From contig JAKAKI010000034.1 in assembly GCA_021813505.1 (NCBI GenBank), positions 10,059-74,058 on the forward strand: a DNA stretch of 64,000 nucleotides, in the 5' to 3' direction. Every line of letters begins with the position of its first letter. Within the stretch, counting starts at the first letter, position 1. The stretch is from a bacterium (GTDB lineage: Bacteria > Zixibacteria > MSB-5A5 > WJJR01). Under the pieces are notes generated by a model, which was given only the letters and a program-made list of their open reading frames with translations, ran no database searches and had not been told where the DNA came from. Both the position numbers and the translations under genes were made by a program. This document shows positions 1,887 to 49,836 of this stretch, piece after piece.

Positions 1887-3014
1887 TCATGGACGTGGGG
1901 CAAGATCGATGTCCTCGACCCACCGGTTGAAGTTGGGAAAGATCAATTTGCCGACAGTCTTTGTTCGCGCATTGATGACGAGCAGCGGCTGAAGGCCCGC
2001 AACAGAATTCACGTAGACCTTATCCGATCCGGGGAGGAAGCGAATGTTGGACGGTGCCAGAGTTCTGTTGGGATCGGCGTAATAGCCGGTGATCGGTACA
2101 GTGTCCTTGTGAAATCCCGTGGATGCATCATAGACGTCAATGCGGCCGTGCCAGTCGGGAGCAAAACCGAGCAAATCACCATGATCGGTGGTCCACACCT
2201 CCAGTCCGTCCGGACTGACGCGGCAGTGCTGGAATGCACCGGCAGGCTGGAGAAAGAGAAGTGAGTGATTGCTCACATCATAACCGGCGAGAAATGGCCC
2301 GCCTTGGATACCATAGGCAAGTGCATAGAACCGGTTCCCATTAGGAGAAAACGTGAAGGCTCCAATGCTGAGCGCAGTGTCGCCGTGCTTGATGGAGAAC
2401 GAATCAACGGGAGTGCCGTTGGGATCGAACACTACGATCTTGTGGAGATCGTGCCGTGGGGGCTGTTCACGTTGGGAGTCGAGACTGGCAGTCCTACCGT
2501 CGCTTCCAGCAGGCTCCGTGAGCCAGCAAGGACGTGGCCACGTCTCCCGGTACTCAAAACCCGGTATAGTGTAGACGCGCGTGCTGTCATAATCCGGCGC
2601 GAGAATCATGTGCGCGGAGGGAAGAAACACCGCTGGCAATGATGGCGCCGCCAAGTACGTGATTTGCGTCCGGGAGCTCGCTTCGAAAATTTCTGGTGGT
2701 CTATTGGAGCCAAGTACGGCAAAATACTTCCCGTCGGGGGAGGCAACGACGCCAGGGCTGGACTGGAAGCCACGAGTGACGCTGTCGATTACAGAGTCAG
2801 TTGCACAATCGATGACGGCGATCGAACCCTCGCTGACACCGTGCATGGCCGCGTAGAGCAGGTACCTCGGTTCCAGTTGCGGCTGAATTCCGGATTCGCA
2901 ACTCGTTAGTGACGACAGGACCCCGGCAGAGATTGCCAGCCTGGCAAACCAGGGGACGAGAGCCCTTACGCCACTCACGCCATAGAGTTTCTTCATTCCA
3001 ATGGCGTGTGTCAT
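1887..3014 (-). CDS. Beta-propeller (YVTN-type repeat) lipoprotein, paralog B (tandem duplicate of A)
   Basis: It has the same N-terminus (MTHAIGMKK...LSSLTSC lipobox) and the same C-terminus (...EDIDLAPRP) as paralog A. Its 5' leader is nearly identical (catttcacctcctatga(c/t)cggacttcgtgat) with the same SD. Confidence 0.6.
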   Translation of the reverse strand: MTHAIGMKKLYGVSGVRALVPWFARLAISAGVLSSLTSCESGIQPQLEPRYLLYAAMHGVSEGSIAVIDCATDSVIDSVTRGFQSSPGVVASPDGKYFAVLGSNRPPEIFEASSRTQITYLAAPSLPAVFLPSAHMILAPDYDSTRVYTIPGFEYRETWPRPCWLTEPAGSDGRTASLDSQREQPPRHDLHKIVVFDPNGTPVDSFSIKHGDTALSIGAFTFSPNGNRFYALAYGIQGGPFLAGYDVSNHSLLFLQPAGAFQHCRVSPDGLEVWTTDHGDLLGFAPDWHGRIDVYDASTGFHKDTVPITGYYADPNRTLAPSNIRFLPGSDKVYVNSVAGLQPLLVINARTKTVGKLIFPNFNRWVEDIDLAPRP

Positions 3015-4948: not shown

Positions 4949-5806
4949 TTAACCCTTGGTTGCGCGGCAGGCTTCTTCGAGCTCAGTGAATCCCGGGCGG
5001 ACGTCGCTATAGATGGAACGGCGGGCGAACTCAACGGCGATCGCCGCGACGCAGCCCTTGTGGAATGCCAACAGGACCTGCTTCAGTGCAACAAAGTAAC
5101 GGCCATTCTCTTCCGCCTTGCTGGCCAGGTTGGCGGCCAGCGGCTGAACGAAGCCGTACGACAACAGCACGCCCAGGAATGTCCCCACCAGCGCCGCGCC
5201 CACTTTGTGCCCGATTTCCTCGGCAGGACCGTCGATCGCGCCCATCGTGATGACAATGCCCAGTACGGCCGCCACGATCCCCAGACCGGGCAGAGAATCA
5301 CCGGTGGTCTGCAGCACCTTCGAGGGTTTGGTGGCTTCCTCGTGGTGCGTTTCGAGGTCGACGTCCATTAACGCGTCCAAATCGTGCGCCTGGACCCCCG
5401 ATCCGGAGATGATCAGCCGCATCGTGTCGGCCAGGAAACTCACCGCGTGATGGTTTTTCGCGAAGCTGGGATACTTGCCGATGATCGCACTGCCTTCGGG
5501 CCGTTCGATGTGACCCTCCAGGGCCATAATTCCATCGCGGCGCGCCACGGTCAGCAGTTCGTACAGCATCGAAAGCAGATCGAGATAGTCTTTTTTTGTG
5601 GGGCCGATCTTGGGCAGACTCGCCAGTTGCGAGATCATCGTCTTGAGTGTCTTGGGGCCGCTGCCAATGATCAGTGCCCCCCCTGCCGCGCCTCCGATGA
5701 TGAGGAATTCGGCGGGCTGGAAGAGGACGAGGAGCTTGCCGCCCTCCATAAGATAGCCACCGAGAATGGCGGCAATGACAATGCCGATCCCTGCAAATGC
5801 AATCAC
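4949..5806 (-). CDS. motA: Flagellar motor stator protein MotA
   Basis: The 285-aa, 4-TM protein is collinear with E. coli MotA (GGYLMxGG, YQPAE, RLIISG, ETHEE, GDSLPxFGIVAAV, MVGTFLGxLLxYGF, PIAVEF motifs). Confidence 0.9.
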   Translation of the reverse strand: MIAFAGIGIVIAAILGGYLMEGGKLLVLFQPAEFLIIGGAAGGALIIGSGPKTLKTMISQLASLPKIGPTKKDYLDLLSMLYELLTVARRDGIMALEGHIERPEGSAIIGKYPSFAKNHHAVSFLADTMRLIISGSGVQAHDLDALMDVDLETHHEEATKPSKVLQTTGDSLPGLGIVAAVLGIVITMGAIDGPAEEIGHKVGAALVGTFLGVLLSYGFVQPLAANLASKAEENGRYFVALKQVLLAFHKGCVAAIAVEFARRSIYSDVRPGFTELEEACRATKG

Positions 5807-5925
5807 GCTCTTCCTCCCGTCCGGCCGAATGGCCGGACCCTATTGGAGTATCGTCAGTTAGTGGAAGTTCTGCAGCGGTGCAGGAGATTCGGCTGCGCCC
5901 GATTAGGTGGGCGGAGCCCATCACT

Positions 5926-6031
5926 GGGAGGGCGAGGCTCCCGCCGAGCCTTGTTACCGCGCAGATACCCTTATTAACGTAAGCCACAACACCCGCGCGG
6001 CAAAGAGGCTCGGCAGGACCCTCGCCCTCCC
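5926..6031. repeat. REP-like palindromic element, copy 1 (25-nt GC-rich inverted arms around a 56-nt spacer)
   Basis: Left arm gggagggcgaggctcccgccgagcc (5926-5950) pairs with ggctcggcaggaccctcgccctccc (6007-6031) at 23/25 positions. The spacer carries an inner ccgcgc/gcgcgg sub-palindrome. Near-identical arms recur at 48277-48346. Confidence 0.6.
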
Positions 6032-6090: not shown

Positions 6091-6852
6091 TCAATACTGG
6101 GATTCGGCCTGGGGGCCCAGGATGCGGATGAAGTTGCGAAACAACTCAAGCCCCGGCCACTGTTTGTGGCGAAGCTCTTGATGATCGGCGATCCAGCGAG
6201 GGATCAGGGGTATCGGAATCAGCCGGGGCGATTCACCGCTCAACTCCGCTGTCAGCCGGGCCAGCGGAACCGTCAACGGGAGCGGCATGGGGACCTTGTC
6301 GATGTCGTTGGCGATCGGATCGACGCAGAGTTCGGCGGGAGAGGTGACGTTGTATTCGCGGCATACGACCGGGCGATGCAGATGGATGCTGCACAGTTCA
6401 TCCACCAGAAACGGGCACGCCATCCCGAGGAGAAAATACTTGCGCGCGATCGGGAGCACAGCTTCGTCGACATATTCTGGATTGAGCAGTTCATCGATCA
6501 TCTGCAATCGCTCGAGTTCGCCGGCGATTCTACTCATGCGTGACATAACTTCATCGCGGTGAGCCGGCTCAAATGAATCGATCAGATCCTGCAGGTAGAA
6601 TGCTTCCGGCGGCGAAATCGCGACCATGTGGTGGCAGCAGGCTGCGCACCGGGCACGGCAGGAAACGTGGCGTCCTGCGTGCACTTCGCGCCGATGGGCC
6701 TGGGCCACCAGAACGTTGGTCAATTCAAAAGCGGTCGGCACGAGTTCCGCCAGCCGCATCGGGCCCGTGTCGACCTCGACGCGGCCCCGCATGACGCCTT
6801 CCGGTGTCTGGAGCGTGACGGACATTAGTGCTACGCGACTGTCGCCCGTCAT
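6091..6852 (-). CDS. YkgJ/UPF0153-family Cys-cluster (putative Fe-S or zinc-binding) protein
   Basis: The cysteine cluster CRARCAACCHH (C-x3-C-x2-CC) is close to the CxxCxxCC signature of the YkgJ / flagellin N-methylase (FliB) family. The start overlaps the upstream gene by 4 bp. Confidence 0.45.
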   Translation of the reverse strand: MTGDSRVALMSVTLQTPEGVMRGRVEVDTGPMRLAELVPTAFELTNVLVAQAHRREVHAGRHVSCRARCAACCHHMVAISPPEAFYLQDLIDSFEPAHRDEVMSRMSRIAGELERLQMIDELLNPEYVDEAVLPIARKYFLLGMACPFLVDELCSIHLHRPVVCREYNVTSPAELCVDPIANDIDKVPMPLPLTVPLARLTAELSGESPRLIPIPLIPRWIADHQELRHKQWPGLELFRNFIRILGPQAESQY

Positions 6853-7613
6853 TTGGTGAATACCGGATCAAGATGCAATTGGAAGATGTGGCCGCAGTAC
6901 CGGCACCGGATTCGTTCGCCCTCCCGCCCCTGCCGCACACCCAGGCTCCGATTGCAGCCATCACAGCCGATCCATGACACGGGTTGTGAGTAGTCCACCG
7001 GTCCGCTGGGGCGGTCGAGATACTCCACCTGATGGGCAGCGTAGATGCCGGCTGCAATCGGCTGCCAGGTTGAACCTCCACCCATTGCGGCGTCGCGTTT
7101 GTGAATCGCCTCGCGATGGCTGGCGTCGCCGTGGGCGATCACATACTGGCTGACGGTTTCCCAGAAGGGAAGGCTGTCCGTCTGATCGAGGCAGGTAATC
7201 CAAAGATCGACGGCCGCATGAGGGTCACGAGAAACAACTGCCCGGCCCACGTTGAAGATTACCTCGGGATCGGAGTCCCCTCTGAACCGGCCCGCGAGCC
7301 ATTCCCGGTCACCGGGATGGAACTGAATCAGATATCCTGCTGCTTTGCCGCGTGCGGGAGCCTCAGGATTCTCCAGGGTGCGGCGGCCAAGTTCACGGAG
7401 CCTGTCATCGGCAGACCCACGGGTGAACAGCATCCAGATCATGTAACACACCGAGGGTGATGTTTCTCGCGTCAGCACATCAAGGAGCGTTCCGATCCCA
7501 TCGCTGACTTTCAGGCGCTTGCCGACAACCTCTGTCAGCAGGGCGCGTAAGCAATCGAGTTTTTCCTTTTCGTCCTTTGCATCAAGCAGGGACTCGAATT
7601 TAACCTGGCTCAC
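6849..7613 (-). CDS. Hypothetical HEAT-like repeat protein with C-terminal zinc ribbon; candidate Rhs immunity protein
   Basis: It has a 4-bp start/stop overlap with the Rhs gene. Composition is balanced and non-low-complexity. The C-terminal CDGC...CRYCGH is a zinc ribbon. The internal repeats are HEAT_2-like (DDRLRELGRR..., DSDPEVIFNVGRAV...). The immunity role is inferred from position only. Confidence 0.4.
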   Translation of the reverse strand: MSQVKFESLLDAKDEKEKLDCLRALLTEVVGKRLKVSDGIGTLLDVLTRETSPSVCYMIWMLFTRGSADDRLRELGRRTLENPEAPARGKAAGYLIQFHPGDREWLAGRFRGDSDPEVIFNVGRAVVSRDPHAAVDLWITCLDQTDSLPFWETVSQYVIAHGDASHREAIHKRDAAMGGGSTWQPIAAGIYAAHQVEYLDRPSGPVDYSQPVSWIGCDGCNRSLGVRQGREGERIRCRYCGHIFQLHLDPVFTK

Positions 7614-10600
7614 GAAGATCCCCCCGAACTACCGCCACCGCCGGAAGGATCGAGCGGCTCGAGCCTTTCGGGATTCGGGTGATCCGGTAGCGTGCTGGGC
7701 CGCTCGGGCGCACCATCGGACATGATGGGCGTATGCAGCGGCCTTTGAAAATCGTCCATTCGTCGTGTGTACTCCGGTGAATCGCGCGTTTCGCCCGGCC
7801 CGGGCTGCGGCGCAGGACCGGCGGGAGTGCCATCATCGTGGTAGTGCGTCGTCCCGGGGACACGGCTTCGTGGTTCGAGGAAAGATTGCTCATTAGGAGT
7901 CATGCCTGTCCCACCCGGTCCGAGCGGCGTACTTTCCGGTGTCGCTCCCGAATCGAAACTGCTCCGATGAACATGTGGCGGGAATCCAGCCGGCCCCATC
8001 GATTCCGCGTGCCCCCATGGATCGACGCGAACTGCGTGAGTCGTCCCATCGGCATCCCGCATCATCCAGATGCCGCTAACCTCTTCTTGATTCCCCGTCC
8101 GAGGGCTTCGGTCTGTTCCGGGGGGACGCACTTCCACATACCCTGCCGCCCGGAGCATCTCGGTGATCTCGGCATAGGTTCGATAGGCCATCGACGGGAG
8201 TTCTTGCACCGGCATCCCCGGACGCACCTCCGGCTCCTCTTCGCTGGGATGCGGGGTCGTACTGGAGCAATCATCGCTGAGCCCGGATGGATCGATCTTG
8301 CGCCAGGGATTGGACGGGTACGCGTAGATGTTGATTCCGCCTTTGAGCAGAATCGGATCGGGCTCCAGAAACCGGGCTGTTGCCGGGTCGTAGTAGCGAA
8401 ACCCGTTGTATCGCCAGCCGGTTTCACGGTCATAATATTGCCCGGGAGATCGCAGGTTGAACTCGATGCCCTGGCTCTCATCCACAATCCCTTCGCCGTA
8501 TGGCTCAGGCTCCCAGGACCAAACACAGCGCCCATCGCGATTCGTGATCGCACGGGGCAGACCGATGTCATCGGAATGAATGTAGTAGGGAACAACAACG
8601 CCGTCGCCACCCACAGCTCCCGTTTGTTCAACAAACATGAACGGCGCATTCGCGCCGTCGAGATAGAGATAGATCCTACGGTGATTGTCGTCAGAGATCT
8701 CACGCAGCAGGCGGTGCTCGTCGTACTGGAACGTGACTCTCTTGCCGTCGCACTCCTTCCACTTCCTTCGTCCCAGCGCATCGTAGCCAAAGGTGACAAT
8801 ACGGCCCTGTTCTGTCCTGACCTTCAGGAGCCGGCCGTTTCCATCATAGGAGACTTCACGGACGCCCTGCGATGTTGCGATCTGCTTCGGACAACCCCTC
8901 GAATCATAGGTGTACGTGCGGTCGTCGACACGGTTCAGGCGATTCCCAATACCGAATTCCCACGCCTTCCCGGGATTGACCACGATGTTTTCCGCCGCAT
9001 CATAACGGAAGTCGGCACGACGGCTTTCCGAACTCTGGGCGCTGATGATGCGATCCAGATCGTCGTACCCATAGGAATTGTGCGAACTGCGAAGCCAGTC
9101 GGTCTCGCGCAGACGGTTGCCGTCGGCATCGCACTTGTACTGCCGGAGAACCAACCGCTTCTGACGGTTCTCCAGCCGCTCCACCCGGTGCCACTCCAGG
9201 ACGCCCTGTGGCGTCATCGACTTAACTTCCACCCACCCGTTGGGGAAAACGTGTGAGCGCAAGTCGCCCCCCGCACCGCTGATTTCATGCTTATCACCGA
9301 GCGGATCGATCAACTCGATCGTGGCGCCCGTCGCACTGTAGGCGAACTTCGCGCTGAAGCCCTCTGACCATTCAATCTTCTCGACGTTGCCGTTAGCGCT
9401 GCGATGAAATGCCACCGACCCTTCGCGACATTCGATCATTGCCGGCTTGCCGTGACGGTCGTACTTGGTCTTGATGTCATCGCCGTCGTTCGTGGCCTTG
9501 ACAACACGCCCACAGGCATCTGGCACGAACTCGGCGGTGCAGGCCCCCGCCGGCTCTTCTTTGATCTTGAACCTTCCCGGCCCGTATTCGCGACGGACAA
9601 GTATTGCCCCATCGCCGTCATACACCTCTTTGACATTCCAATCGGCGTCGAAAATACGGCGGGAAAAAGGCGTCTGATCGAGGGTGATCACCGCCGGCCG
9701 GTCTTTGTGATCCCGTTCAAATTCGGTCTGATGCCCTGCACCATCGACGACCTTCACCATCTCATCGGCTCGATTGAATGAATAGCGGATGGTCTGGCCG
9801 TTGGGAGCACGCGTGGCGACACACTTGTTCCACGATGAGTATTCGTAGCGCCGGGTGCGGCCCCGTGGATCGGTATCCGATGTGAGATTCCCCTCGGCGT
9901 CATACTGCCGCTTCGATTGCGATCCATCCGGGAAGGTGATCTCAAGGAGACGGCCCAAATCGTCGAAGCGATACCGCATCCGACGGTCCCCCTCCCGCCG
10001 TTCAATGATCCTCCCCCAATCGTCATAGCGGAAGGCGGTGAGAAGCGCACCGGGGTCATTGAAGATGGCGATGAGCCGGCCCCCGTCATCGTAGCGGAGA
10101 TTGGTCGCCTTGCCACTCGGATCGATCTTTCGGGAGAGACGATTTCGGGAATCGTATTCGTAGAGCGTCACATCGCCGGACGGGCTCATCTCGCCGTCCA
10201 GGTTCCCCCGATGATCGTAGGACCATTTCGTCGTGTTTCCGTCCGGGTCAGTCTCTTCGATCTTCAGGTTCAGGTCGTTGTAGGCGCGCTTGGTGGTTCC
10301 GCCAAAGGGGTTGGTCTCTTCAACGACATTCCCGAAATCATCATACTTGTACTTCCTGGTGCTCCCCGTCTCGTCGACTTCGGCGACTTTATTGCCGGCT
10401 TTGTCGTACTCGAAGACCTGGACCCCGCCATATGGATCCATGCGCGAGGTGATCAGTCCACGCTCGTCGTAACGATAGATAATCTTGCCGCCGGTGGGCG
10501 AATGCAGAATGGTAATGCTCGCCGGAGGCAGATACTCTACCGTACCGGCATACAGGTCATCGTCACCGCGCGACTTGATGCAGCGGCCGTCACGGTCATA

Positions 10601-12019
10601 GGCATAATGGAACGAGTATCCGTTGCGGTCGGTCTTGCGCGTCATTTGGTGCTTGTCATCGTAGGTGTACTTGTACCGCCTGCCCACCGCATCAATGACC
10701 GCCACCATGTCGCCGTGGTCGTCGTATTCGTAGGCCACCAGCGGCCGGAGCTTGCCGTCACTGCAGGCCAGCGCGAGGCGGGTGATGCGGCCGTCGGTGT
10801 GCGACTCGACTTTGATTCTCTGCCCGGTGGAATGTACGATCTCGTGCAGCCGTCCTTTGGGGTCGTAGCGGAATCCGATCGCCTCACCGGCGCGGTTCGA
10901 GAGGCGTGCGATCCACGCCTGGTCTGATTTCGGTAGTCGCACGAACTGCGCGGTCATACCGTCGATCCCGCTTACGGTGAATTGAGTCGCGGACTGTCTC
11001 GTCAGCGTGAGTTTTTCGAACGGCAGAAATTCAGACCCGCCATCCTTCTCGATGACCGGGAAGACAATCGACCGATTCTGTTCGTTGTGATAGACGATTG
11101 TCGCATGATGGAATTCCAGCCAGCGCTGATACTGGTGGCTCCAGTTCCAACCCAGCGGACCATCCGTCCCCAGAGTGTTGGCATAATACCGCTTCCAGGA
11201 AAGCTGAAGAGGCCCACCGATTTCGAAATCTGTCTTGTCCTCGAAGTTCGAGCCGGAGACGAGATCAATTGGCTCGAGTCCCAGCCGGCAGCGATTGCGG
11301 TCAATGAACCTGCCGGCCGCCTTCGATCCGGCATAGCCGGCGGCTGCCGTGATCGCGTTGGTGACGAATGCCTCGACCAGTTGCGCAAAGGTCATCCCAA
11401 CCTGGACGTGTGAAAACGCGATCACTGTGGCATTGGGAACGATCGGAATCTCGGAGCAGGACGCGCCTCCCAGGGGAACTCCCAAGGCCATTGATCCGCC
11501 ATTGACCGACACGGTCGGCGAGCCGATGGCGGTGTTCCCTTCGGCGCCAGGCAAAGGGATCGGCGGAATAAGCATCTGCGCCCATGTCTGCCACATCGTG
11601 AACGGCTGGAAGGCACCGGTGATGCCATCCCACACCGCTTTCGAGGACGAGACCTGGGGATCGGTTAACGACGATGCGATTCCTTTGACCACACCGATCA
11701 TGATATTGGCTGCGAGAGTGAAGAGGGTCACGAAGCCGACGGTGATGAGATTAGTGATGTACCAGACTTTGAAGGTGACCTTCGGAATATCGACCCACGT
11801 TCCCTGGGGAATGTGGATCGAGTACCCTTTGGCGCCGGAGCAGCACGCGGGACTGCCGTTGATCATCACATTGGACATCGGGAACTTCGGCGACGTCCAG
11901 AGCATGAGCACGCCGACAAACGGATGCGGATTGAGTGGAACGGGCGGAATCGCGGTCGAATGCGCATCAATCCCGATCAGCATCGTGTTGCCGGTCGTGC
12001 ATGCTGGGAAAAGCGGCAT
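7610..12019 (-). CDS. rhs: T6SS effector: N-terminal PAAR-like (DUF4150) domain, TM helices, Rhs/YD-repeat cage and a C-terminal variable region
   Basis: There are many YD repeats (RYDDGGRL, YDAEGNL, YEYDxxxR...). The Rhs core ends with GQYYDRETGWRYNGFRYYDPATARFLEPDPI...NIYAYPSNPWRKIDPSGL. The N-terminus MLIGIDAHSTAIPPVPL...VMINGSPACCSG is PAAR-like, followed by hydrophobic helices. The gene lies immediately downstream of vgrG and DUF2169. Confidence 0.9.
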   Translation of the reverse strand: MPLFPACTTGNTMLIGIDAHSTAIPPVPLNPHPFVGVLMLWTSPKFPMSNVMINGSPACCSGAKGYSIHIPQGTWVDIPKVTFKVWYITNLITVGFVTLFTLAANIMIGVVKGIASSLTDPQVSSSKAVWDGITGAFQPFTMWQTWAQMLIPPIPLPGAEGNTAIGSPTVSVNGGSMALGVPLGGASCSEIPIVPNATVIAFSHVQVGMTFAQLVEAFVTNAITAAAGYAGSKAAGRFIDRNRCRLGLEPIDLVSGSNFEDKTDFEIGGPLQLSWKRYYANTLGTDGPLGWNWSHQYQRWLEFHHATIVYHNEQNRSIVFPVIEKDGGSEFLPFEKLTLTRQSATQFTVSGIDGMTAQFVRLPKSDQAWIARLSNRAGEAIGFRYDPKGRLHEIVHSTGQRIKVESHTDGRITRLALACSDGKLRPLVAYEYDDHGDMVAVIDAVGRRYKYTYDDKHQMTRKTDRNGYSFHYAYDRDGRCIKSRGDDDLYAGTVEYLPPASITILHSPTGGKIIYRYDERGLITSRMDPYGGVQVFEYDKAGNKVAEVDETGSTRKYKYDDFGNVVEETNPFGGTTKRAYNDLNLKIEETDPDGNTTKWSYDHRGNLDGEMSPSGDVTLYEYDSRNRLSRKIDPSGKATNLRYDDGGRLIAIFNDPGALLTAFRYDDWGRIIERREGDRRMRYRFDDLGRLLEITFPDGSQSKRQYDAEGNLTSDTDPRGRTRRYEYSSWNKCVATRAPNGQTIRYSFNRADEMVKVVDGAGHQTEFERDHKDRPAVITLDQTPFSRRIFDADWNVKEVYDGDGAILVRREYGPGRFKIKEEPAGACTAEFVPDACGRVVKATNDGDDIKTKYDRHGKPAMIECREGSVAFHRSANGNVEKIEWSEGFSAKFAYSATGATIELIDPLGDKHEISGAGGDLRSHVFPNGWVEVKSMTPQGVLEWHRVERLENRQKRLVLRQYKCDADGNRLRETDWLRSSHNSYGYDDLDRIISAQSSESRRADFRYDAAENIVVNPGKAWEFGIGNRLNRVDDRTYTYDSRGCPKQIATSQGVREVSYDGNGRLLKVRTEQGRIVTFGYDALGRRKWKECDGKRVTFQYDEHRLLREISDDNHRRIYLYLDGANAPFMFVEQTGAVGGDGVVVPYYIHSDDIGLPRAITNRDGRCVWSWEPEPYGEGIVDESQGIEFNLRSPGQYYDRETGWRYNGFRYYDPATARFLEPDPILLKGGINIYAYPSNPWRKIDPSGLSDDCSSTTPHPSEEEPEVRPGMPVQELPSMAYRTYAEITEMLRAAGYVEVRPPGTDRSPRTGNQEEVSGIWMMRDADGTTHAVRVDPWGHAESMGPAGFPPHVHRSSFDSGATPESTPLGPGGTGMTPNEQSFLEPRSRVPGTTHYHDDGTPAGPAPQPGPGETRDSPEYTRRMDDFQRPLHTPIMSDGAPERPSTLPDHPNPERLEPLDPSGGGGSSGGSS

Positions 12020-27187: not shown

Positions 27188-30100
27188 CTATCGACACACC
27201 GACTGAGGGCATTGGAATTGGGAGAACCGATGATTCAGGATGAAATCGGCGCCCTCTCCGGTGACCGTGAGCACGACTTTCTGGGTCTGTCCCGTACGGG
27301 CCTTAAACGTCCAGATCAAATTGGAACCGGACCGCTCGGCCTGATCGATCAAGTGGAACAGTCCCCAATCCCCGCTGTATTGCAGCGGCTGGAAGAAGAC
27401 GCCGTTGGTGGTCGATTCGATGGACAACTCGGTCCTGGCATCGCCAACCTGCGGCCACACGTACTCCACCGGGTACGGAGTGCCGGAGACATATTCAAGG
27501 TCCGGGAAACCGGCATACTTGAACCGCAGCACCTTGATTCCGGCCATGCTCCGCGCATCAGCCACCATGCTGAATCGGAGTTTCTCGCGCCCTTTCTTCA
27601 AGACACGCTGGATCTGCTGCGCTTTTTCGATCTGGTCCTGGAATCCGCCGGGAACGGACACTCCTCCCGCACCACCAAGCTCCGAGGTCACGAAATCGGA
27701 AAACTTATCGAAGAACGACTCCATGTTGGCTCGATCCACGCCTCCGTCATCGGTCTGCGTGAACGGATACATGCCGCTCAGGTTCGTGTTGTAGAAGTCG
27801 TAGACGCGGGCTTTCCACGCCTGATCCAGGCAGCCACAGCCACCGAGGAATGCCGCGCTCTGGGCTCCGCTGATGGGCTGACAGAGCAATTTGGCGGCAT
27901 CCTGCGCCAAATCGGATTGGTTGAGAAGCTTTTCGACGTTTCCGGAGATTTCGCGCATGTCGCGTCCGAAATCACGCAACGCGTCGCCGCAGTGGGCGCC
28001 CCCCTCCAGCTTCTTCTGAACCTCCTTGAGCTTGCCTGCCACCTGGCCGAGAAGCTCGTTGTACGTCTTCTTGGGCGGATCCCCGCTGGCCTGAATCAAA
28101 CCGAAGAACCGCCCCAACGGTGTGAACTGCTGCTCCACTTTCTTCGCGGATTCCTTATCGAGGTCTTTCAGGTTGCCCTGTTCATACACCTTGTTCAGGA
28201 CCGTGAGCGCGGGAGAGTTGTCGCCCGTGAATTCCTTGAGGCCATCGTTGGCATCGTCCAAATCGCGGAACGTGGAGATCATTCCTGATTGAATGAACTG
28301 CCGCCAGACCGCGATGAACTCGGTCACATATTTCTGCGTGAGCCGCTGCTGAATCTGTTCGTCTGTAAACATCGAGAAGGCCGGCTTCTTCATTGGGTCG
28401 GCCCTCAGCACCTCCGGCATGCGTTCAATGGCGGGCTGAACGTCTTTTTGCCAGGTTTCGGCCATGAACGCACGAGGGACGCGCACTTTTCCGCTGAGCC
28501 TGATTGAGGCCGGTACGGCTTCCGAGTATGTGAATTCCGATTCCTTGCTGCTGATATCGCTGATCATCACATTGTAAATCAGGTCCATCGTCCAGTGGCT
28601 GTTCATCTGCGAAGTCGCGAAGGACAGCACCCGCTGGCTTCCTGAGGCTCGCAGCCACCGGATCGTCGCATCCGGGCGGTACTTCCAATAGAAGGGCAGC
28701 TGCTTCTCATTCAACTGAGCGAACTGCCGGAAGGATTCCTGATCCATGGAGGACTGGAAGATCGAATCCACCTGATCACGGAGCGTGCCAGTCGCCTGCG
28801 ACGCGGAATCGTAGGGAACAGTCAGCATCTGGTACGCGGTAAACGTCGTGTAATAGTTGATCACGTCCGTGTTCGAAGCGGCGCGATCAAGGGGCAGCAT
28901 CAGCTTGTCCGCCAGACGCTGGGCGACCGGCTCCAGCAGGATGTCGTGGTATCGCTGGAAGTAGACTTCAAGCCCCTTGCGGACGACTACATCACCGCTA
29001 TAAAGCCCCCAGCGCAGCCGGAGCGGGATGCTGGCGCCTGCCCTGGCCAACTCATCGCGCAACTCATCAAGCGTGTTGAGCGCACTCACAGAGGGACTTG
29101 CCTGAGAGCTCGTGGCATCCGCAACACGTTTGATCGTTGCCGCCAGTTCCGCGTTGTGACTGCAGTTGTTGACGTAGGAAGTGCCCATGGCGAGGATGAG
29201 CAATCCGGATACGACCGCTTGCGCGGCCATGGCGGCGATCCGAAAAGCCCGGCGCCGCCTCGCGGCCTTTGTCGTGGGGTAAACCTTGGCTTCGTCGGGA
29301 AGTATGATCTCCTGGAAGAGATCCTTGATGAAATAGGCCTTGGTCTCCTTGGGCGGTTCGAATTGCGCCATGAAATCCGACACCAGGCCGAAATCCTTCT
29401 GCATGGATTCCATCACCTGGGCAATCGGAGTCCCTTCCTGGGTGCCGCTCGTAAAGTAGAATCCGCGCACGAGAGGATTTTGCTGATAGGGATTCGGCTG
29501 GAACAGTGCTTCGACGAAGGTGGCGAGCTTCCGGCCGGCAGCGGCGAATTCAACGGAGAAAAGGTAGGTGCCGCGTTTCTGCGCTGGACGCATTTCACCG
29601 GCAAGCTGGCGCGAGCGGCGATTCTCCAGCACACCCGACAACAGGGCGAACTCCTGCTCAAACTCCTCACGCATGGGACGGCGGGCCGGCTCGTACTTGC
29701 GCGTCCAGCCCCAGATCTGTTCCCGGTCGGCCTTGGTGAAATCGCCGAAGAACTCGACAAACCCGGCGACCAGATCGCATTTGGTGAAGACAACGTAGAT
29801 GGGATACAACACTTGCAGCTTGACGATCAATTCATCAATGCGGCTGCGCATGGCGCGGGCGTGCGCCTCGATGCCGTCCGCATCCTGATGCAGAAGATCC
29901 GCCATCGAGACTGCCAAAATCAGTCCGTTGATCGGCGCACGGGGACGTGCCTTCTGCAGCATCTTCAGGAAATTCGACCATTCTTCCCGGTCTTCCTGAA
30001 CATTGGGAGAGAGTGTGTAGCGGCCCGCGGTGTCGAGGATGATCCCCTCATTGGTGAACCACCAGTCGCAATTGCGTGTGCCTCCCAGCCCTTTGACTTT

Positions 30101-30583
30101 CCCCGGATCCTCGGAGTCGGGATCGACCGGCGGGAAATGCAGCCCGGAATTGCGAATCGCTGTCGATTTGCCGGACGCCGACGGCCCGATGATCATGTAC
30201 CACGGGAGCACGTACAGCGCTTCGGCCCCCCGCCGCCCACGGGCAATGCGGGATTTCTTGAGAATCCCGACCGCGCGATTCATCTTCTCTTTGATCGCCG
30301 CGAGTTCGTCCTGAACATCCGGGCGTGAGGAGAGAAGTTGATCATCGGCCTGCTGGTTGAGAAATTTCTCCAGCATGCGCGCATTCTTCTTGGCACGCAG
30401 TTTCTTGATGAGCAGGTACAGGAGGAAACCGACGACGATGAGTATCGCCAGGCCGTAACACCACCAGCGATACTTGTACCCGACCACCCTCGGCCCCCAC
30501 AGGACCAGCACCAGAGCGATGACCAGCACCGCGCCCAGCGCGGCGAGTTTCGATTTGAGTATGGGCAGAAGGAGGCTGAACAT
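27188..30583 (-). CDS. tssM: T6SS membrane complex protein TssM (IcmF family)
   Basis: A 1131-aa protein with N-terminal TM helices, a Walker A motif (GPSASGKST) and an IcmF-like periplasmic region. Confidence 0.93.
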   Translation of the reverse strand: MFSLLLPILKSKLAALGAVLVIALVLVLWGPRVVGYKYRWWCYGLAILIVVGFLLYLLIKKLRAKKNARMLEKFLNQQADDQLLSSRPDVQDELAAIKEKMNRAVGILKKSRIARGRRGAEALYVLPWYMIIGPSASGKSTAIRNSGLHFPPVDPDSEDPGKVKGLGGTRNCDWWFTNEGIILDTAGRYTLSPNVQEDREEWSNFLKMLQKARPRAPINGLILAVSMADLLHQDADGIEAHARAMRSRIDELIVKLQVLYPIYVVFTKCDLVAGFVEFFGDFTKADREQIWGWTRKYEPARRPMREEFEQEFALLSGVLENRRSRQLAGEMRPAQKRGTYLFSVEFAAAGRKLATFVEALFQPNPYQQNPLVRGFYFTSGTQEGTPIAQVMESMQKDFGLVSDFMAQFEPPKETKAYFIKDLFQEIILPDEAKVYPTTKAARRRRAFRIAAMAAQAVVSGLLILAMGTSYVNNCSHNAELAATIKRVADATSSQASPSVSALNTLDELRDELARAGASIPLRLRWGLYSGDVVVRKGLEVYFQRYHDILLEPVAQRLADKLMLPLDRAASNTDVINYYTTFTAYQMLTVPYDSASQATGTLRDQVDSIFQSSMDQESFRQFAQLNEKQLPFYWKYRPDATIRWLRASGSQRVLSFATSQMNSHWTMDLIYNVMISDISSKESEFTYSEAVPASIRLSGKVRVPRAFMAETWQKDVQPAIERMPEVLRADPMKKPAFSMFTDEQIQQRLTQKYVTEFIAVWRQFIQSGMISTFRDLDDANDGLKEFTGDNSPALTVLNKVYEQGNLKDLDKESAKKVEQQFTPLGRFFGLIQASGDPPKKTYNELLGQVAGKLKEVQKKLEGGAHCGDALRDFGRDMREISGNVEKLLNQSDLAQDAAKLLCQPISGAQSAAFLGGCGCLDQAWKARVYDFYNTNLSGMYPFTQTDDGGVDRANMESFFDKFSDFVTSELGGAGGVSVPGGFQDQIEKAQQIQRVLKKGREKLRFSMVADARSMAGIKVLRFKYAGFPDLEYVSGTPYPVEYVWPQVGDARTELSIESTTNGVFFQPLQYSGDWGLFHLIDQAERSGSNLIWTFKARTGQTQKVVLTVTGEGADFILNHRFSQFQCPQSVCR

Positions 30584-41129: not shown

Positions 41130-42380
<1,251 letters not shown>

Positions 42381-42416: not shown

Positions 42417-43637
42417 CTATTCGTAGCGTAGCGCCTCGATCGGATCGAGCCGGGCCGCCTTCATGGCCGGATAAACGCCAAAGACCGTTCCGATGCCGCC
42501 GGAGACCAGAATCCCGGCCACAATCGACCAGATCTCTATCCCCATGGGAATCCCCGACAAGGCCGACAATCCCTGGCCCACGGCGATTCCTCCCAGAATT
42601 CCCACTGCGCCGCCCAGCACCGACAGGGTCAGCGCTTCGGACAAAAACTGCCACATGACGCTGGCTTTGCGCGCGCCGATGGCCTTGCGGATTCCGATTT
42701 CGCGGGTGCGCTCGGTCACCGAGACAAGCATGATATTCATGATCACAATCCCGCCCACAACCAGTGAGATCGAGGAAATGCCGATCATGACGATGAAGGC
42801 GCCGCGCGAGAAATTCTCCCACATGCTCATGATGTCGCCGGCAGTGAAGATTTCGAAGTCGTCCGCATCAGCATATTTCAACTTGTGCCGGGCCCGCATG
42901 GTCATGCGCACCTCATCCTGTGCCGAGGCGATTCCCTCGAATGTCCGCGCCTTGACGAAGATATCGAGCGACCGGCGCTGCCCGAACTGCTTCTCGAACG
43001 TAGACAGCGGGATGATCACATAATTGTCGTGGCTGTTCCCCAGAGTGGAACCGCGCCGCTTGCCGTTGCCGATGACGGTGTATTCCTGGCCGGAGATCGT
43101 GATCACCTTCCCGATGTGCGACATTCCGGGGAACAATTCATCCATGATGTCATAGCCAATGAACGCCACCGGACGCCGGTGTTCGTTGTCCGCTTCCGTG
43201 GGGTAGTGCCCTTGTTCGATTTCGAAGTTGACGATTTGGGGGAAGTTCGCGGTTGAGCCCATGATGAAAACGTCGTTCACGTACCGATTGCCGGATTTGA
43301 CCTTGCGCATGGTCATTTCACGGCCACCGACGTACTCGCATCCCTGACACGCCGCGGCCACCTCGTTCATGTCCTCGACTGTCAGTTTCTTGCGCTTCAT
43401 CCGTTCCCACCAGGTTTCCTCGCTGGTGATGATCCCTTCCTTATCCACGATGAAGGTGGTGGCGCCGAGCTGGTCGATTTCCGCGGCGACATACTGGTTC
43501 ATGCCGGTGATCAAGGAGACGATGGCAATGATCGTGGCGACGCCGATGATCATTCCAATCAAAGTCAGCGTGGTGCGCAGCTTGTTGGCCCACAGCGCGG
43601 CCAGGGCGATCTTCACGCTTTCGATGAACTGGCGCAT
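42417..43637 (-). CDS. ABC transporter permease, FtsX/MacB-periplasmic-domain family (second paralog)
   Basis: Same architecture as the adjacent permease (...IVIMNIMLVSVTERTREIGIRKAIGA...). Confidence 0.8.
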   Translation of the reverse strand: MRQFIESVKIALAALWANKLRTTLTLIGMIIGVATIIAIVSLITGMNQYVAAEIDQLGATTFIVDKEGIITSEETWWERMKRKKLTVEDMNEVAAACQGCEYVGGREMTMRKVKSGNRYVNDVFIMGSTANFPQIVNFEIEQGHYPTEADNEHRRPVAFIGYDIMDELFPGMSHIGKVITISGQEYTVIGNGKRRGSTLGNSHDNYVIIPLSTFEKQFGQRRSLDIFVKARTFEGIASAQDEVRMTMRARHKLKYADADDFEIFTAGDIMSMWENFSRGAFIVMIGISSISLVVGGIVIMNIMLVSVTERTREIGIRKAIGARKASVMWQFLSEALTLSVLGGAVGILGGIAVGQGLSALSGIPMGIEIWSIVAGILVSGGIGTVFGVYPAMKAARLDPIEALRYE

Positions 43638-47282: not shown

Positions 47283-48038
47283 CTACGCGCCAAACTGTAC
47301 ACCCAAAGTCGCCAGCCCGCCTTGGACCACGACCCAAACCAGCCATGCCACAAACACTGCCACCAGCGCCTTCTTTCCCGGCACACGCGCCAACACCGAC
47401 ACGGCGACTGAGGACAGCCATACCTGCCATAACGCAAACAACTCGAAAGACGATATCAGTTTCTTAATGAATGGACCGGTATCGGCTGAGGTCAGAACTC
47501 CGAGACCAATGGAGACATCCATCGAACCTTTGGCCATGACCATCGGCACCGTCACGATGCTGCCGGGGATGACGATCATCATCGTCCAGGCATAGGCGTT
47601 CAGCATCTTCAAGTACGAGCAATTCCCGCCCAGGAGAATGTTACCCAGAAACAGAAGAATTCCCGCGACCACAGCGAGCACCACCAGTTGCGTAGCGGGA
47701 ACGAAGAGCAGATATAATGGATTCTCGAATTGTGATTCCATCTTTTCGAGAATCTCGGCCCGCTGCGTTTCAGTCACTTGCGGATTGGCTTTCAATTGCT
47801 CCGTAACTCTCTCGATCTGGCTCTGCTTGACGACGTCTTTGATCGGCATGTAGGCGCAGATACTGATTGCCGCAACCACGACCCAAAGAATGACCCACTC
47901 ATGGTTGGGTTTGATGCTGGCGAAGGTCTTGCGCGGGTCAACAAACAGATTCCACAGCTTTCCGAAAAATCCCAGCTGTGGCTCCTCATTGATTGGTGGC
48001 TGTTCCACCATCTCCATGGGTTCACTGTTCAGGTCCAT
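47283..48038 (-). CDS. Yip1-family membrane protein
   Basis: The internal start MDLNSEPME... is followed by FFGKLWNLFVDPRKTF, typical of bacterial Yip1/DUF1282, and then 5 TM helices. The track ORF has an Arg/Cys-rich upstream extension that is unlikely to be coding. Confidence 0.5.
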   Translation of the reverse strand: MDLNSEPMEMVEQPPINEEPQLGFFGKLWNLFVDPRKTFASIKPNHEWVILWVVVAAISICAYMPIKDVVKQSQIERVTEQLKANPQVTETQRAEILEKMESQFENPLYLLFVPATQLVVLAVVAGILLFLGNILLGGNCSYLKMLNAYAWTMMIVIPGSIVTVPMVMAKGSMDVSIGLGVLTSADTGPFIKKLISSFELFALWQVWLSSVAVSVLARVPGKKALVAVFVAWLVWVVVQGGLATLGVQFGA

Positions 48039-48276
48039 GATTATCCACCTCCGATGTACAGGGCCGCGACCGCCGGGCGCCGCGACACATGGAAGTATCA
48101 GACGGCACCGGCAGCATAAAGTTTCAAGTTTCCGGCGGGGACGACCCCGCCCCCGCACCGGTTAGTTACCCCTTTTCACTCTGAAATTCAACGGCTGAAT
48201 CGGATGCGGATTTGGCAAAATCGTGGCAATTGCAGGTTGATGATACTGTTCGTTCAACGGGTATAAGCCGAATGTT

Positions 48277-48346
48277 GGGAGGGCAAGGCTCCTGCCGAGC
48301 CTTTTCGCCGCGCGGAAACATGGCTCGGCAGGAGCCTCGCCCTCCC
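48277..48346. repeat. REP-like palindromic element, copy 2 (25-nt arms, 20-nt loop)
   Basis: gggagggcaaggctcctgccgagcc (48277-48301) pairs with ggctcggcaggagcctcgccctccc (48322-48346) with 1 mismatch. The loop ttttcgccgcgcggaaacat contains a cgccgcgcgg palindrome. The arms are >90% identical to copy 1 at 5926-6031. Confidence 0.6.
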
Positions 48347-48359
48347 CGGGAAAGTCGTC

Positions 48360-49679
48360 TCAATTGCGCCAGACCTGAATGGTTTGGTAGAAGAACTTTC
48401 CGACAATCGTTTTCAAGATGATTGCGATCATCAGAGAACCCGCAAAGACCATCGTCATCCTTCGCGGCGCATTGGCAAGCCAGACCCGGACACGGGCGAA
48501 CCGCTCGTGGACCAGCCAACCACCGGCCATGGCGATCAACGTGTAGGCGGGAAAGACGTAGCGGTCCGCCTTTCGTTCGAAGAATGCCATTAGAAGGACG
48601 AGCGTGGCGGCGGATACCAGCAGCCAGCGCCACGCAGTGGAGCCGGGATAGACCTTTGAGGCCGAATCACGCCGCGGCCACCATCGGGCTGCCAGCAGGA
48701 AGAGGCTCCACGGCAGAGCGAAATACAGGATGCGACCCAGGTACCAGACCAGATTGTAGAGCTTGCTCCATGGCGAAAGTGACTTTACGGCAATCCCCGC
48801 CTGGATTGTCATGTAGGTGAACCAGAACTCCTCGCCCGTATGAAGGCGATATCGCCACTCGAACAGGGCGCAGATCAGCAGCATAAAAACGGTTCCGAAT
48901 ATCAGGGTAAGGAAGCGCCAGCGATCCCGTGTCCAAAAGAGCCAGAAGATGCCAGCGAAAATCGGCACGATCAGCCCCTGCATTCCTTTGACGAATACCG
49001 CGAATGTGACAGCTGCCGCGAATAGAAGCCGGGCGAGCGGCAGACGGTCGGCTCGCACGAAGGCGTAGAGTCCCATCACCGTGGCCAAAGTCAGCGGCGG
49101 TTCGAGGTTCCCGCGAATCAGGTATTGCAGGGTGACCGGTATGAGGAACGCGGCCCAGACCATCGCCCAACCAAGTGTTGGTCCGTCGAGGTGGCGCCCA
49201 AATTTGAAGATGAAAAGGAAATTCAGGAGGTAGTATAGCAGATTGGCGATCGCCGCCGCCTGCCCCGCCGGGGCGCCCAATCGAATCAGCGACGCCGATA
49301 CCCAGAGGACACCCGGCGGGTGCTCGCGGAAGAGTCCCTCCCGGTCCCAAAATCCCGACCACTGGGGTGCGATCCACTCACAGATCGGCTGCTTTGCGAT
49401 CGTCTGGGCGATGTCGCTGTAAAGCTTCGAGTCGGCGTCGCGGAACTGCACATCCACCGCCCACACGAGAATCACGAAGGTGAGAATGAGGATCAGCCAA
49501 ATCGCCCAGAGCGCGAAATCCGGCGTCTTTCGTGATGCGACCAACTCAGGCACAGGAGAGGATAGTCGTCCCCGCCTAGATGTTGCAAGGGCTTTCCCGG
49601 AAGTGCCTAACGGGAAGGGCGTGTAACGGACATCGGCCCGGACTCCCACCCGGAGGGGGCGTGCTGAAAAATAGGCCAA
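48360..49679 (-). CDS. Polytopic membrane protein, possibly glycosyltransferase family 39/ArnT-like (PMT_2)
   Basis: A 439-aa protein with >8 TM helices. The first extracytoplasmic loop has acidic residues (VDVQFRDADSKLYSD). Overall topology resembles GT-C membrane glycosyltransferases. This is a weak call. Confidence 0.4.
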   Translation of the reverse strand: MAYFSARPLRVGVRADVRYTPFPLGTSGKALATSRRGRLSSPVPELVASRKTPDFALWAIWLILILTFVILVWAVDVQFRDADSKLYSDIAQTIAKQPICEWIAPQWSGFWDREGLFREHPPGVLWVSASLIRLGAPAGQAAAIANLLYYLLNFLFIFKFGRHLDGPTLGWAMVWAAFLIPVTLQYLIRGNLEPPLTLATVMGLYAFVRADRLPLARLLFAAAVTFAVFVKGMQGLIVPIFAGIFWLFWTRDRWRFLTLIFGTVFMLLICALFEWRYRLHTGEEFWFTYMTIQAGIAVKSLSPWSKLYNLVWYLGRILYFALPWSLFLLAARWWPRRDSASKVYPGSTAWRWLLVSAATLVLLMAFFERKADRYVFPAYTLIAMAGGWLVHERFARVRVWLANAPRRMTMVFAGSLMIAIILKTIVGKFFYQTIQVWRN

Positions 49680-49711: not shown

Positions 49712-49836
49712 CACGGACAAGGAAGACCGAGCGGCTTTTCTGCTCGGTCTTCCTTGTCCGTGTCGTTCCTCTGTTGGCGAGAAGAAGACACGGACAAGCA
49801 GATTCTCCAAGGAGCCGGAGAATCTGCTTGTCCGTG
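49712..49836. repeat. Two tandem GC-rich hairpins sharing a CACGGACAAG core (21-bp stem/9-nt loop and 20-bp stem/8-nt loop)
   Basis: Hairpin A pairs 49712-49732 with 49742-49762 perfectly. Hairpin B pairs 49789-49808 with 49817-49836 perfectly. Both left arms begin cacggacaag. They lie in the intergenic gap between the DUF4175 stop and the downstream membrane-protein start. Confidence 0.6.

Follow-up and report, generated by a model that had tools for sequence, protein, structure and literature searches.

Two inverted doublets in a Zixibacteria contig belong to a REP-like repeat family whose unit is near-identical in genomes that bear the labels of more than ten phyla

Results

Two inverted doublets occupy intergenic gaps of the window

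The window, that is, the whole 64-kb stretch of DNA analysed here, contains two elements, each situated between co-directional genes. Element 1 (5926–6031) is preceded in the direction of transcription by the gene for a CxxCxxCC (YkgJ-like) protein (6091–6852, minus strand), whose stop codon lies 59 nt before the element, and is followed by motA (4949–5806, minus strand), which starts 119 nt after it. Element 2 (48277–48346) stands between the gene for a PMT_2 (GT39-like) glycosyltransferase (48360–49679, minus strand; stop codon 13 nt before the element) and that for a Yip1-domain membrane protein (47283–48158, minus strand; start 118 nt after it). The pairs YkgJ-like→motA and GT39-like→Yip1 are as named in the first-pass annotation, all genes being on the minus strand. 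The elements account for two unusually long intergenic gaps in the window, and no sign of a specific regulatory role was observed.

The 25-mer GGGAGGGCRAGGCTCCYGCCGAGCC had four matches at three or fewer mismatches within the window, compared to a chance expectation of 0.00 (100 dinucleotide shuffles), and these form two inverted doublets. In line with this, a covariance-model scan of the whole window recovered only these four arms, at 40–45 bits, the next best score being 15 bits. The earlier claim that one and the same inverted repeat occurs at both sites was thus borne out.

In element 1, the left arm (5926–5950, plus strand; 0 mismatches, 44.4 bits) consists of the foot GGGAG and the hairpin GGC-GA-GGC / TCCC / GCC-GA-GCC, and the inverted right arm (6007–6031, minus strand; 40.6 bits) has one mismatch, with G13 and T17 compared to the left arm. 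Between them lies a spacer of 56 nt (5951–6006) with CCGCGC at 5957–5962 and GCGCGG at 5995–6000. Element 2 comprises a left arm with the A9 variant (48277–48301, plus strand; 41.1 bits), a 20-nt spacer (TTTTCGCCGCGCGGAAACAT, 48302–48321) with the inner palindrome CCGCGCGG at 48308–48315, and an inverted right arm (48322–48346, minus strand; 45.5 bits). The CCGCGC/GCGCGG sub-palindrome that had been described inside both copies is therefore present. Both copies are inverted units with their feet outward.

The spacer of element 1 resembles that of element 2 (...CCGCGC|GG...) with approximately 36 nt inserted. In a repeat search of the window, similarity between the two sites reached about 14–19 nt into the spacers and nowhere passed the outer ends, and hence the elements are discrete and not arms lying within a longer duplicated segment. 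Element 1 was identical in five other independently assembled contigs with the same motA, which excludes an assembly artefact. With regard to RNA folding, the two doublets reached −65 and −99 kcal/mol (z = −7.6 to −9.1).

Several further features were noted in the window. Between 4 and 57 kb, almost every gene is encoded on the minus strand, and a T6SS cluster (7610–33300, minus strand) adjoins element 1, its members including an Rhs/YD-repeat toxin (7610–12019), DUF2169, VgrG, ClpV and TssM/IcmF (27188–30583). A CTGACGA(T/C)A box at approximately 5851–5857 (minus strand), which precedes the motA start by about 50 nt, does not vary between the window and the orthologous gaps of relatives at 73–94% MotA identity, and it may be a promoter or regulatory site. 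Two neighbouring strong hairpins (49712–49762 and 49789–49836) lie in the DUF4175–PMT_2 intergenic gap, one with perfect 21-bp arms and a 9-nt loop and the other with a 20-bp stem, and they have the outer 10 bp CACGGACAAG...CTTGTCCGTG in common; no other exact copies were present in the window, and the 21-nt arm of the first hairpin was not found in 225 loci. Finally, there are two tandem paralogue pairs with 69–71% DNA identity, one without a Pfam match (686–1903 / 1887–3014) and one of MacB-type ABC permeases beside HlyD and OEP genes (41130–42380 / 42417–43637).

Further copies are dispersed across phyla and patchy among close relatives

We scanned a collection with one genome per species for the arm pattern and took taxa from the record titles. 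At least 120 loci with the 25-mer were found in these species-representative genomes, with several per MAG. Of the 120 loci among the matches listed, 96 (~80%) were labelled Planctomycetota, with Pirellulales, Gemmataceae, Isosphaera, Planctomycetaceae, Phycisphaerae and a Kuenenia MAG represented, and one of them comes from an isolate, Lacipirellula limnantheis I41, whose chromosome is complete. Another 19 of these 120 had other labels (Verrucomicrobiae, Victivallales, Chthonomonadales, Acidobacteriota, Zixibacteria, Ignavibacteria, Binatia, Nitrospirales, Thermodesulfobacteriota, Fervidibacter, Alphaproteobacteria and Alcaligenaceae), and five were unclassified. Several non-planctomycete copies are on contigs of 0.2–1.8 Mb, so that binning error does not explain them. 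The MAG labelled Ignavibacteria (locus L046, contig CAYJMP010000001.1) has a GC content of 56%, and the closest named homologues of its arm-bearing DXS are from Zixibacteria and Acidobacteria (72–74% identity); to judge from its sequence, the label may be inexact, and the host is not a planctomycete. The expectation that such a family would be lineage-specific did not survive, as MAGs under the labels of more than ten phyla contain the exact 25-mer.

The arm was also present in 14 IMG/VR contigs, and it was not found in a plasmid collection or in a cultured-phage collection. Rfam gave no match at gathering score, the whole window yielding two tRNAs only and the surroundings of element 1 only sub-threshold plant miRNA hairpin matches; likewise, the arm sequence was not found in the literature searched. 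The suggestion that the family is undescribed agrees with this. Many contigs end in or at an arm (L003, L007, L008, L018, L033, L034, L092 and L140); short-read assemblies are evidently broken by the repeat.

A metagenome scan with the MotA of the window listed 80 related loci. Relatives at 90%, 94% and 73% MotA identity kept the ykgJ-like→motA synteny, with a shorter gap and without the element; these orthologous gaps are too diverged for base-level insertion boundaries. The control loci, i.e., the MotA relatives and others, contained no arms in 437 kb by the covariance model, compared to four in the 64-kb window. Together with the empty orthologous gaps, this indicates that the family is patchy even among close relatives.

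That the window holds only two sites would fit a coincidence or a segmental duplication that includes them. However, no matches are expected by chance, the similarity stops at the element edges and at least 120 further loci exist, which leaves this explanation a negligible probability.

The conserved unit is a single arm that forms a small hairpin

In an alignment of 209 copies, the unit proved to be a sharply bounded 27-mer, Y-GGGAGGGCGAGGCTCCYGCCGAGCC-R, composed of a pyrimidine, the 25-mer and a purine (mostly G) between random flanks. It is this single arm of 25–27 nt, itself a small hairpin, that is conserved, rather than the palindrome with 25-bp arms previously taken as the unit. The single-stranded fold has a 5-nt foot (GGGAG, present in more than 95% of the 209 copies), 3 bp, a tandem G·A/A·G mismatch, another 3 bp and a TCCY tetraloop; the arm varies chiefly at position 17 (Y), which is the final base of the loop.

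The intra-arm hairpin is backed by compensatory changes. At pair 11–20, 241 copies had G-C, 21 had A-T and 5 had C-G, and at pair 12–19, 259 had G-C, 8 had C-G and 2 had T-A or A-T; positions 9–22 and 10–21 were near-invariant as G·A and A·G. Among 68 distinct variants, stem 6–13/18–25 showed 28 both-side compensatory changes as against 4.3 in shuffles, a value reached in 0 of 500 shuffles and well above that of every slid control pairing. The same covariation test gave zero compensatory changes for the alternative pairing of the foot with positions 13–17 (1–5/13–17). The G·A mismatches are purine–purine only on the strand as written, which suggests that this strand is the one recognised.

About 10 of 73 solitary arms were preceded by a C-rich run and TTT (...TCCCTTT|GGGAGGG..., e.g., in L009 and L074), and this run could pair with the foot.

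Doublets have a fixed polarity

We took a census of 160 elements from 134 loci and the window. These include 64 simple inverted doublets, 76 solitary arms and a few tandem runs. Adjacent inverted arms were foot-outward ('+-') in 78 cases and foot-inward ('-+') in one (p = 3e-22), and the sole '-+' case consists of two neighbouring doublets. A '-+' pair would fold equally well, and selection for a hairpin alone does not, therefore, account for the polarity. Doublet spacers were mostly 7–34 nt long, partly shared within a genome and unrelated between genomes, and position 17 varied independently between the two arms of a doublet. Arrays of CRISPR type were considered for three loci with regular 30- and 58-nt spacing (L094, L100 and L114), in all of which tandem duplication explains the spacing, the spacers being identical.

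One interpretation of such an arrangement is that of a MITE, i.e., a deletion derivative of a DDE-type IS whose 25-nt TIRs would be the arms and which would be moved by the transposase of that IS. Conserved outer ends, a fixed foot-out polarity and variable interiors do resemble TIRs around a deleted core, and the patchy distribution with empty orthologous sites is also compatible with it. However, direct repeats of 2–8 nt, as target-site duplications would produce, were no commoner at doublets than in shuffled partners, and solitary arms or same-orientation tandems make up nearly half of the elements. Moreover, each arm is a covarying hairpin, which TIRs do not need, and in the approximately 1.1 Mb around the arms no full-length element enclosing a transposase gene was found, the genes between distant arm pairs being VOC, MscL, PilC and the like. 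We consider this origin very unlikely. With regard to the first-pass description of a REP- or MITE-like dispersed palindrome, the REP-like part is upheld by discrete intergenic copies behind genes, and the MITE part is made less likely by the lack of target-site duplications, the solitary arms and the hairpin within each arm.

Copies lie behind stop codons or, in frame, within coding sequences

Genomic context was counted with a simple GC3-based gene caller, which reproduces the public-record genes for the region of the window (L135). Gaps holding elements were co-directional in 49 cases, convergent in 21 and divergent in 4, compared to a background of 496, 143 and 131, respectively; divergent promoter gaps are thus avoided by the elements. 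Co-directional doublets were found close behind the upstream stop codon (median ~44 nt); the corresponding distances in the window are 59 and 13 nt. Solitary arms had no significant orientation bias with respect to transcription (13 vs 7, p = 0.26).

Approximately 24 copies were well inside long ORFs with a good coding signal and in frame, REGEAPAEP being the commonest reading. The DXS of L046, bona fide by its match to E. coli DXS (PDB 2O1S, E = 9e-170), has an arm in the linker between domains I and II; this linker is hypervariable, and the closest homologue (86% identity) showed no clean 9-aa indel. An all-vs-all clustering of neighbour genes (4,977 ORFs from 134 loci) revealed only common planctomycete families, in no more than 11 loci each. 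Integron cassettes with attC sites were considered for L005, in which every one of the small VOC and SRPBCC genes has an arm behind it, and were rejected since the arm lacks attC features and the context in the window is not cassette-like.

Class-3-type units (see Discussion) and canonical GTAG REPs also occur in arm-bearing loci, sometimes in the same gap. One gap of a Planctomycetota MAG (L053, 4060–4240) is a mosaic of three repeat families, with two canonical GTAG REPs (GTAGGGTGGGCTCTGCCCGCC), a GGGAGGGCRAGGCTCCYGCCGAGCC-type arm and a class-3-type unit (GAACCGCGACCGTCAGGGAGCG).

The position behind stop codons, shared by the window copies and most co-directional copies, would also be expected of a host-selected RNA element, that is, a terminator or a hairpin stabilising mRNA 3' ends and conserved for that function. 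The extreme stability of the hairpins and the avoidance of divergent promoter gaps point in the same direction. Several observations are at odds with it. Folding confirmed very stable hairpins at both elements, but neither has a U-tract or was called terminator-like, and the sequence after the stems is not T-rich. G·U wobbles were not favoured on the transcribed strand, without asymmetry between G·U and A·C (13 vs 20), and the arms of a doublet are independent at position 17. In addition, solitary arms have no preferred orientation, some copies are within long ORFs, the equally foldable '-+' doublet is essentially absent and the orthologous gaps of relatives are without the element. Such a function, including the terminator alternative raised by the first-pass annotation, is accordingly a distinctly unlikely basis for the conservation.

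A 25-nt core extremely conserved across phyla, with sharp edges and invariant G·A positions, might instead be the site of a host DNA- or RNA-binding protein, regulatory or nucleoid, whose specificity would keep it identical. This is highly improbable, given that the neighbour genes have no common function, close relatives lack the element, copies are found in frame within coding sequence and in tandem duplications, and the distribution is patchy and resembles that of an MGE.

Y1-type genes in the loci and in public collections

A search for a RAYT gene elsewhere in the genome had been suggested. The window and 225 loci (~1.5 Mb in total), searched for Y1/RAYT genes with an HMM for PF01797-like ORFs (best E ~1) and with a regex, yielded none. 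Likewise, a scan by motif only for the class 3 TnpA-Y1 signature (NHVH ... YV[VI]xEQ) detected none in the loci examined. For a public protein collection, the Y1 consensus queries were approximate sequences validated against Pfam PF01797; none of the 120 Y1-like protein matches listed had arm-encoded peptides. Three RAYT-like genes sampled from the public collection had a GGGGTCAGG motif upstream and no arms nearby. Genes of the TIRYT type have the TIR consensus GGGGWSAS (Di Nocera et al., PMC3733652), and the motif upstream of the three sampled genes fits this consensus. A route through Legionella to a class 3 gene returned, in 'plasmid' records, dispersed copies only, with no transposase nearby.

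These RAYT-like (Y1_Tnp) genes are on three unrelated contigs and were each preceded by GGGGTCAGGT(C/T)T (L223 at ~9945, L224 at ~9920 and L225 at ~9750), L224 and L225 having two Y1_Tnp genes each.

Discussion

The repeats described here constitute a real and well-defined REP-like family, which was not found in the sources searched and of which the window holds two ordinary copies. The anatomy of the unit, the covariation of its hairpin, the polarity of the doublets, their genomic context, the patchiness of the family and the empty orthologous sites are all matters of observation. The REP- and REPIN-like features, the anatomy close to that of class 3 structures and the co-occurring REPs lead us to propose a Y1 enzyme as the mobiliser. 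By analogy, the doublets are probably REPIN-like pairs of a REP-like, non-autonomous repeat copied by an HUH-Y1-type enzyme (RAYT or class 3).

In such a mechanism, an enzyme acting in trans would recognise the small hairpin and its foot on single-stranded DNA and copy units to new sites. The likeliest candidate would be one of the HUH-Y1 transposases (RAYT or 'class 3 TnpA-Y1'), with a single gene at another place in the genome. Insertions that do little harm would then be the ones to persist, either shortly after a stop codon or, in frame, within a flexible protein linker. A transcribed doublet would fold to a very stable hairpin (−65 to −99 kcal/mol) and could incidentally protect mRNA 3' ends; no selection for such protection was detected. 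The absence of target-site duplications is what is expected for HUH-Y1 elements. Counting against a Y1 enzyme are the lack of a Y1/RAYT gene in the ~1.5 Mb searched, of a recurrent neighbour family and of a GTAG/CGTC tag. So do the different upstream motif and the arm-free surroundings of the three sampled RAYT-like genes, and the occurrence of the unit across phyla when REPIN/RAYT systems are described as vertically inherited.

A near-identical unit in many phyla implies that the system spreads horizontally, that its recognition enzyme is very conserved, or both. A rather unlikely further reading is that the 27-nt module is a minimal mobile unit spreading horizontally across more than ten phyla through machinery other than a known RAYT, which might be an unrecognised HUH or other ssDNA enzyme, or templated insertion; the unit would then stay near-invariant owing to specificity for the GGGAG foot and the G·A hairpin. 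If this were true, it would represent a new class of pan-bacterial miniature element that writes 9-codon insertions into proteins.

The cross-phylum near-identity of the unit and the absence of its enzyme from the ~1.5 Mb searched are the unusual features of the family. If confirmed, it would be among the most widely distributed REP-like sequences seen, with Planctomycetota, other PVC, Acidobacteriota, FCB-group and Proteobacteria labels, and it would challenge a strictly vertical view of REPIN/RAYT systems. In annotation, the arms give rise to spurious ORFs, whose peptides include REGEAPAEP, GSAGASPS and LGGSLALP. The foot and the tandem-G·A hairpin provide a defined substrate with which the single-strand DNA enzyme responsible might be found and tested.

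Compared to known systems, the family resembles bacterial MITEs (Correia/NEMIS, RUP, ERIC) in being small, non-coding and dispersed, with inverted ends and transcript hairpins. MITEs have target-site duplications and related full-length IS, neither of which was found for the present family, in which, moreover, the single arm is an independent unit. With Rickettsia palindromic elements (RPEs) and other intragenic REPs it shares the insertion of short palindromic repeats, in frame, into tolerant regions of functional genes. RPEs, however, are 100–150 nt long, CGTC-tagged and restricted to Rickettsia, whereas most of the present copies are intergenic and the CGTC tag is absent.

The family also resembles REP/REPIN elements. 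These, together with their RAYT (TnpA-REP), are said to have been described by Nunvar in 2010 and by Bertels and Rainey in 2011, in Enterobacteria and Pseudomonas. REPIN/RAYT systems have been described as vertically inherited and lineage-specific. Like them, the present family consists of 20–40-nt imperfect palindromes with a short unpaired 5' foot, occurring as singlets, as inverted doublets that fold into long hairpins and in clusters. Its copies are mostly extragenic, behind genes in co-directional and convergent gaps, and occasionally intragenic; target duplications are absent, and spacers are partly shared within a genome, as in REPIN populations. It differs in the foot, which is GGGAG instead of GTAG (or GT[AG]G), GGAG and GTAG being one base apart, in that no cognate RAYT was found in the window and 225 loci, and in that its unit is almost identical across many phyla, in contrast with vertical, lineage-specific inheritance. 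REP/REPIN elements are non-autonomous, and HUH-Y1 RAYTs, which recognise the foot and the imperfect hairpin, are believed to mobilise them on single-stranded DNA (PMC3733652, PMC6006769).

The closest published anatomy is that of the ~26-nt structures flanking class 3 TnpA-Y1 genes in Legionella, Solibacter usitatus and Planctomyces limnophilus (Quentin et al. 2018, PMC6006769). In Legionella and Solibacter, the structure is nearly identical, CCGAG-CCGCGACC-GTAA-GGGAGCGG (PMC6006769 Table S1). Copy number in Solibacter is about 600, and reports of class 3 genes come mainly from Planctomycetes, Acidobacteria and Proteobacteria (PMC6006769). Going by the table entries, both these structures and the present unit combine a GAG-ending foot, a tandem G·A within the stem and a tetraloop. 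They differ in sequence, CnGAG-CCGCGACC-GTAA-GGGAGCGG compared to GGGAG-GGCGAGGC-TCCY-GCCGAGCC, the GA mismatch being shifted by one position. In several loci, class-3-type units stand alongside the arm described here.
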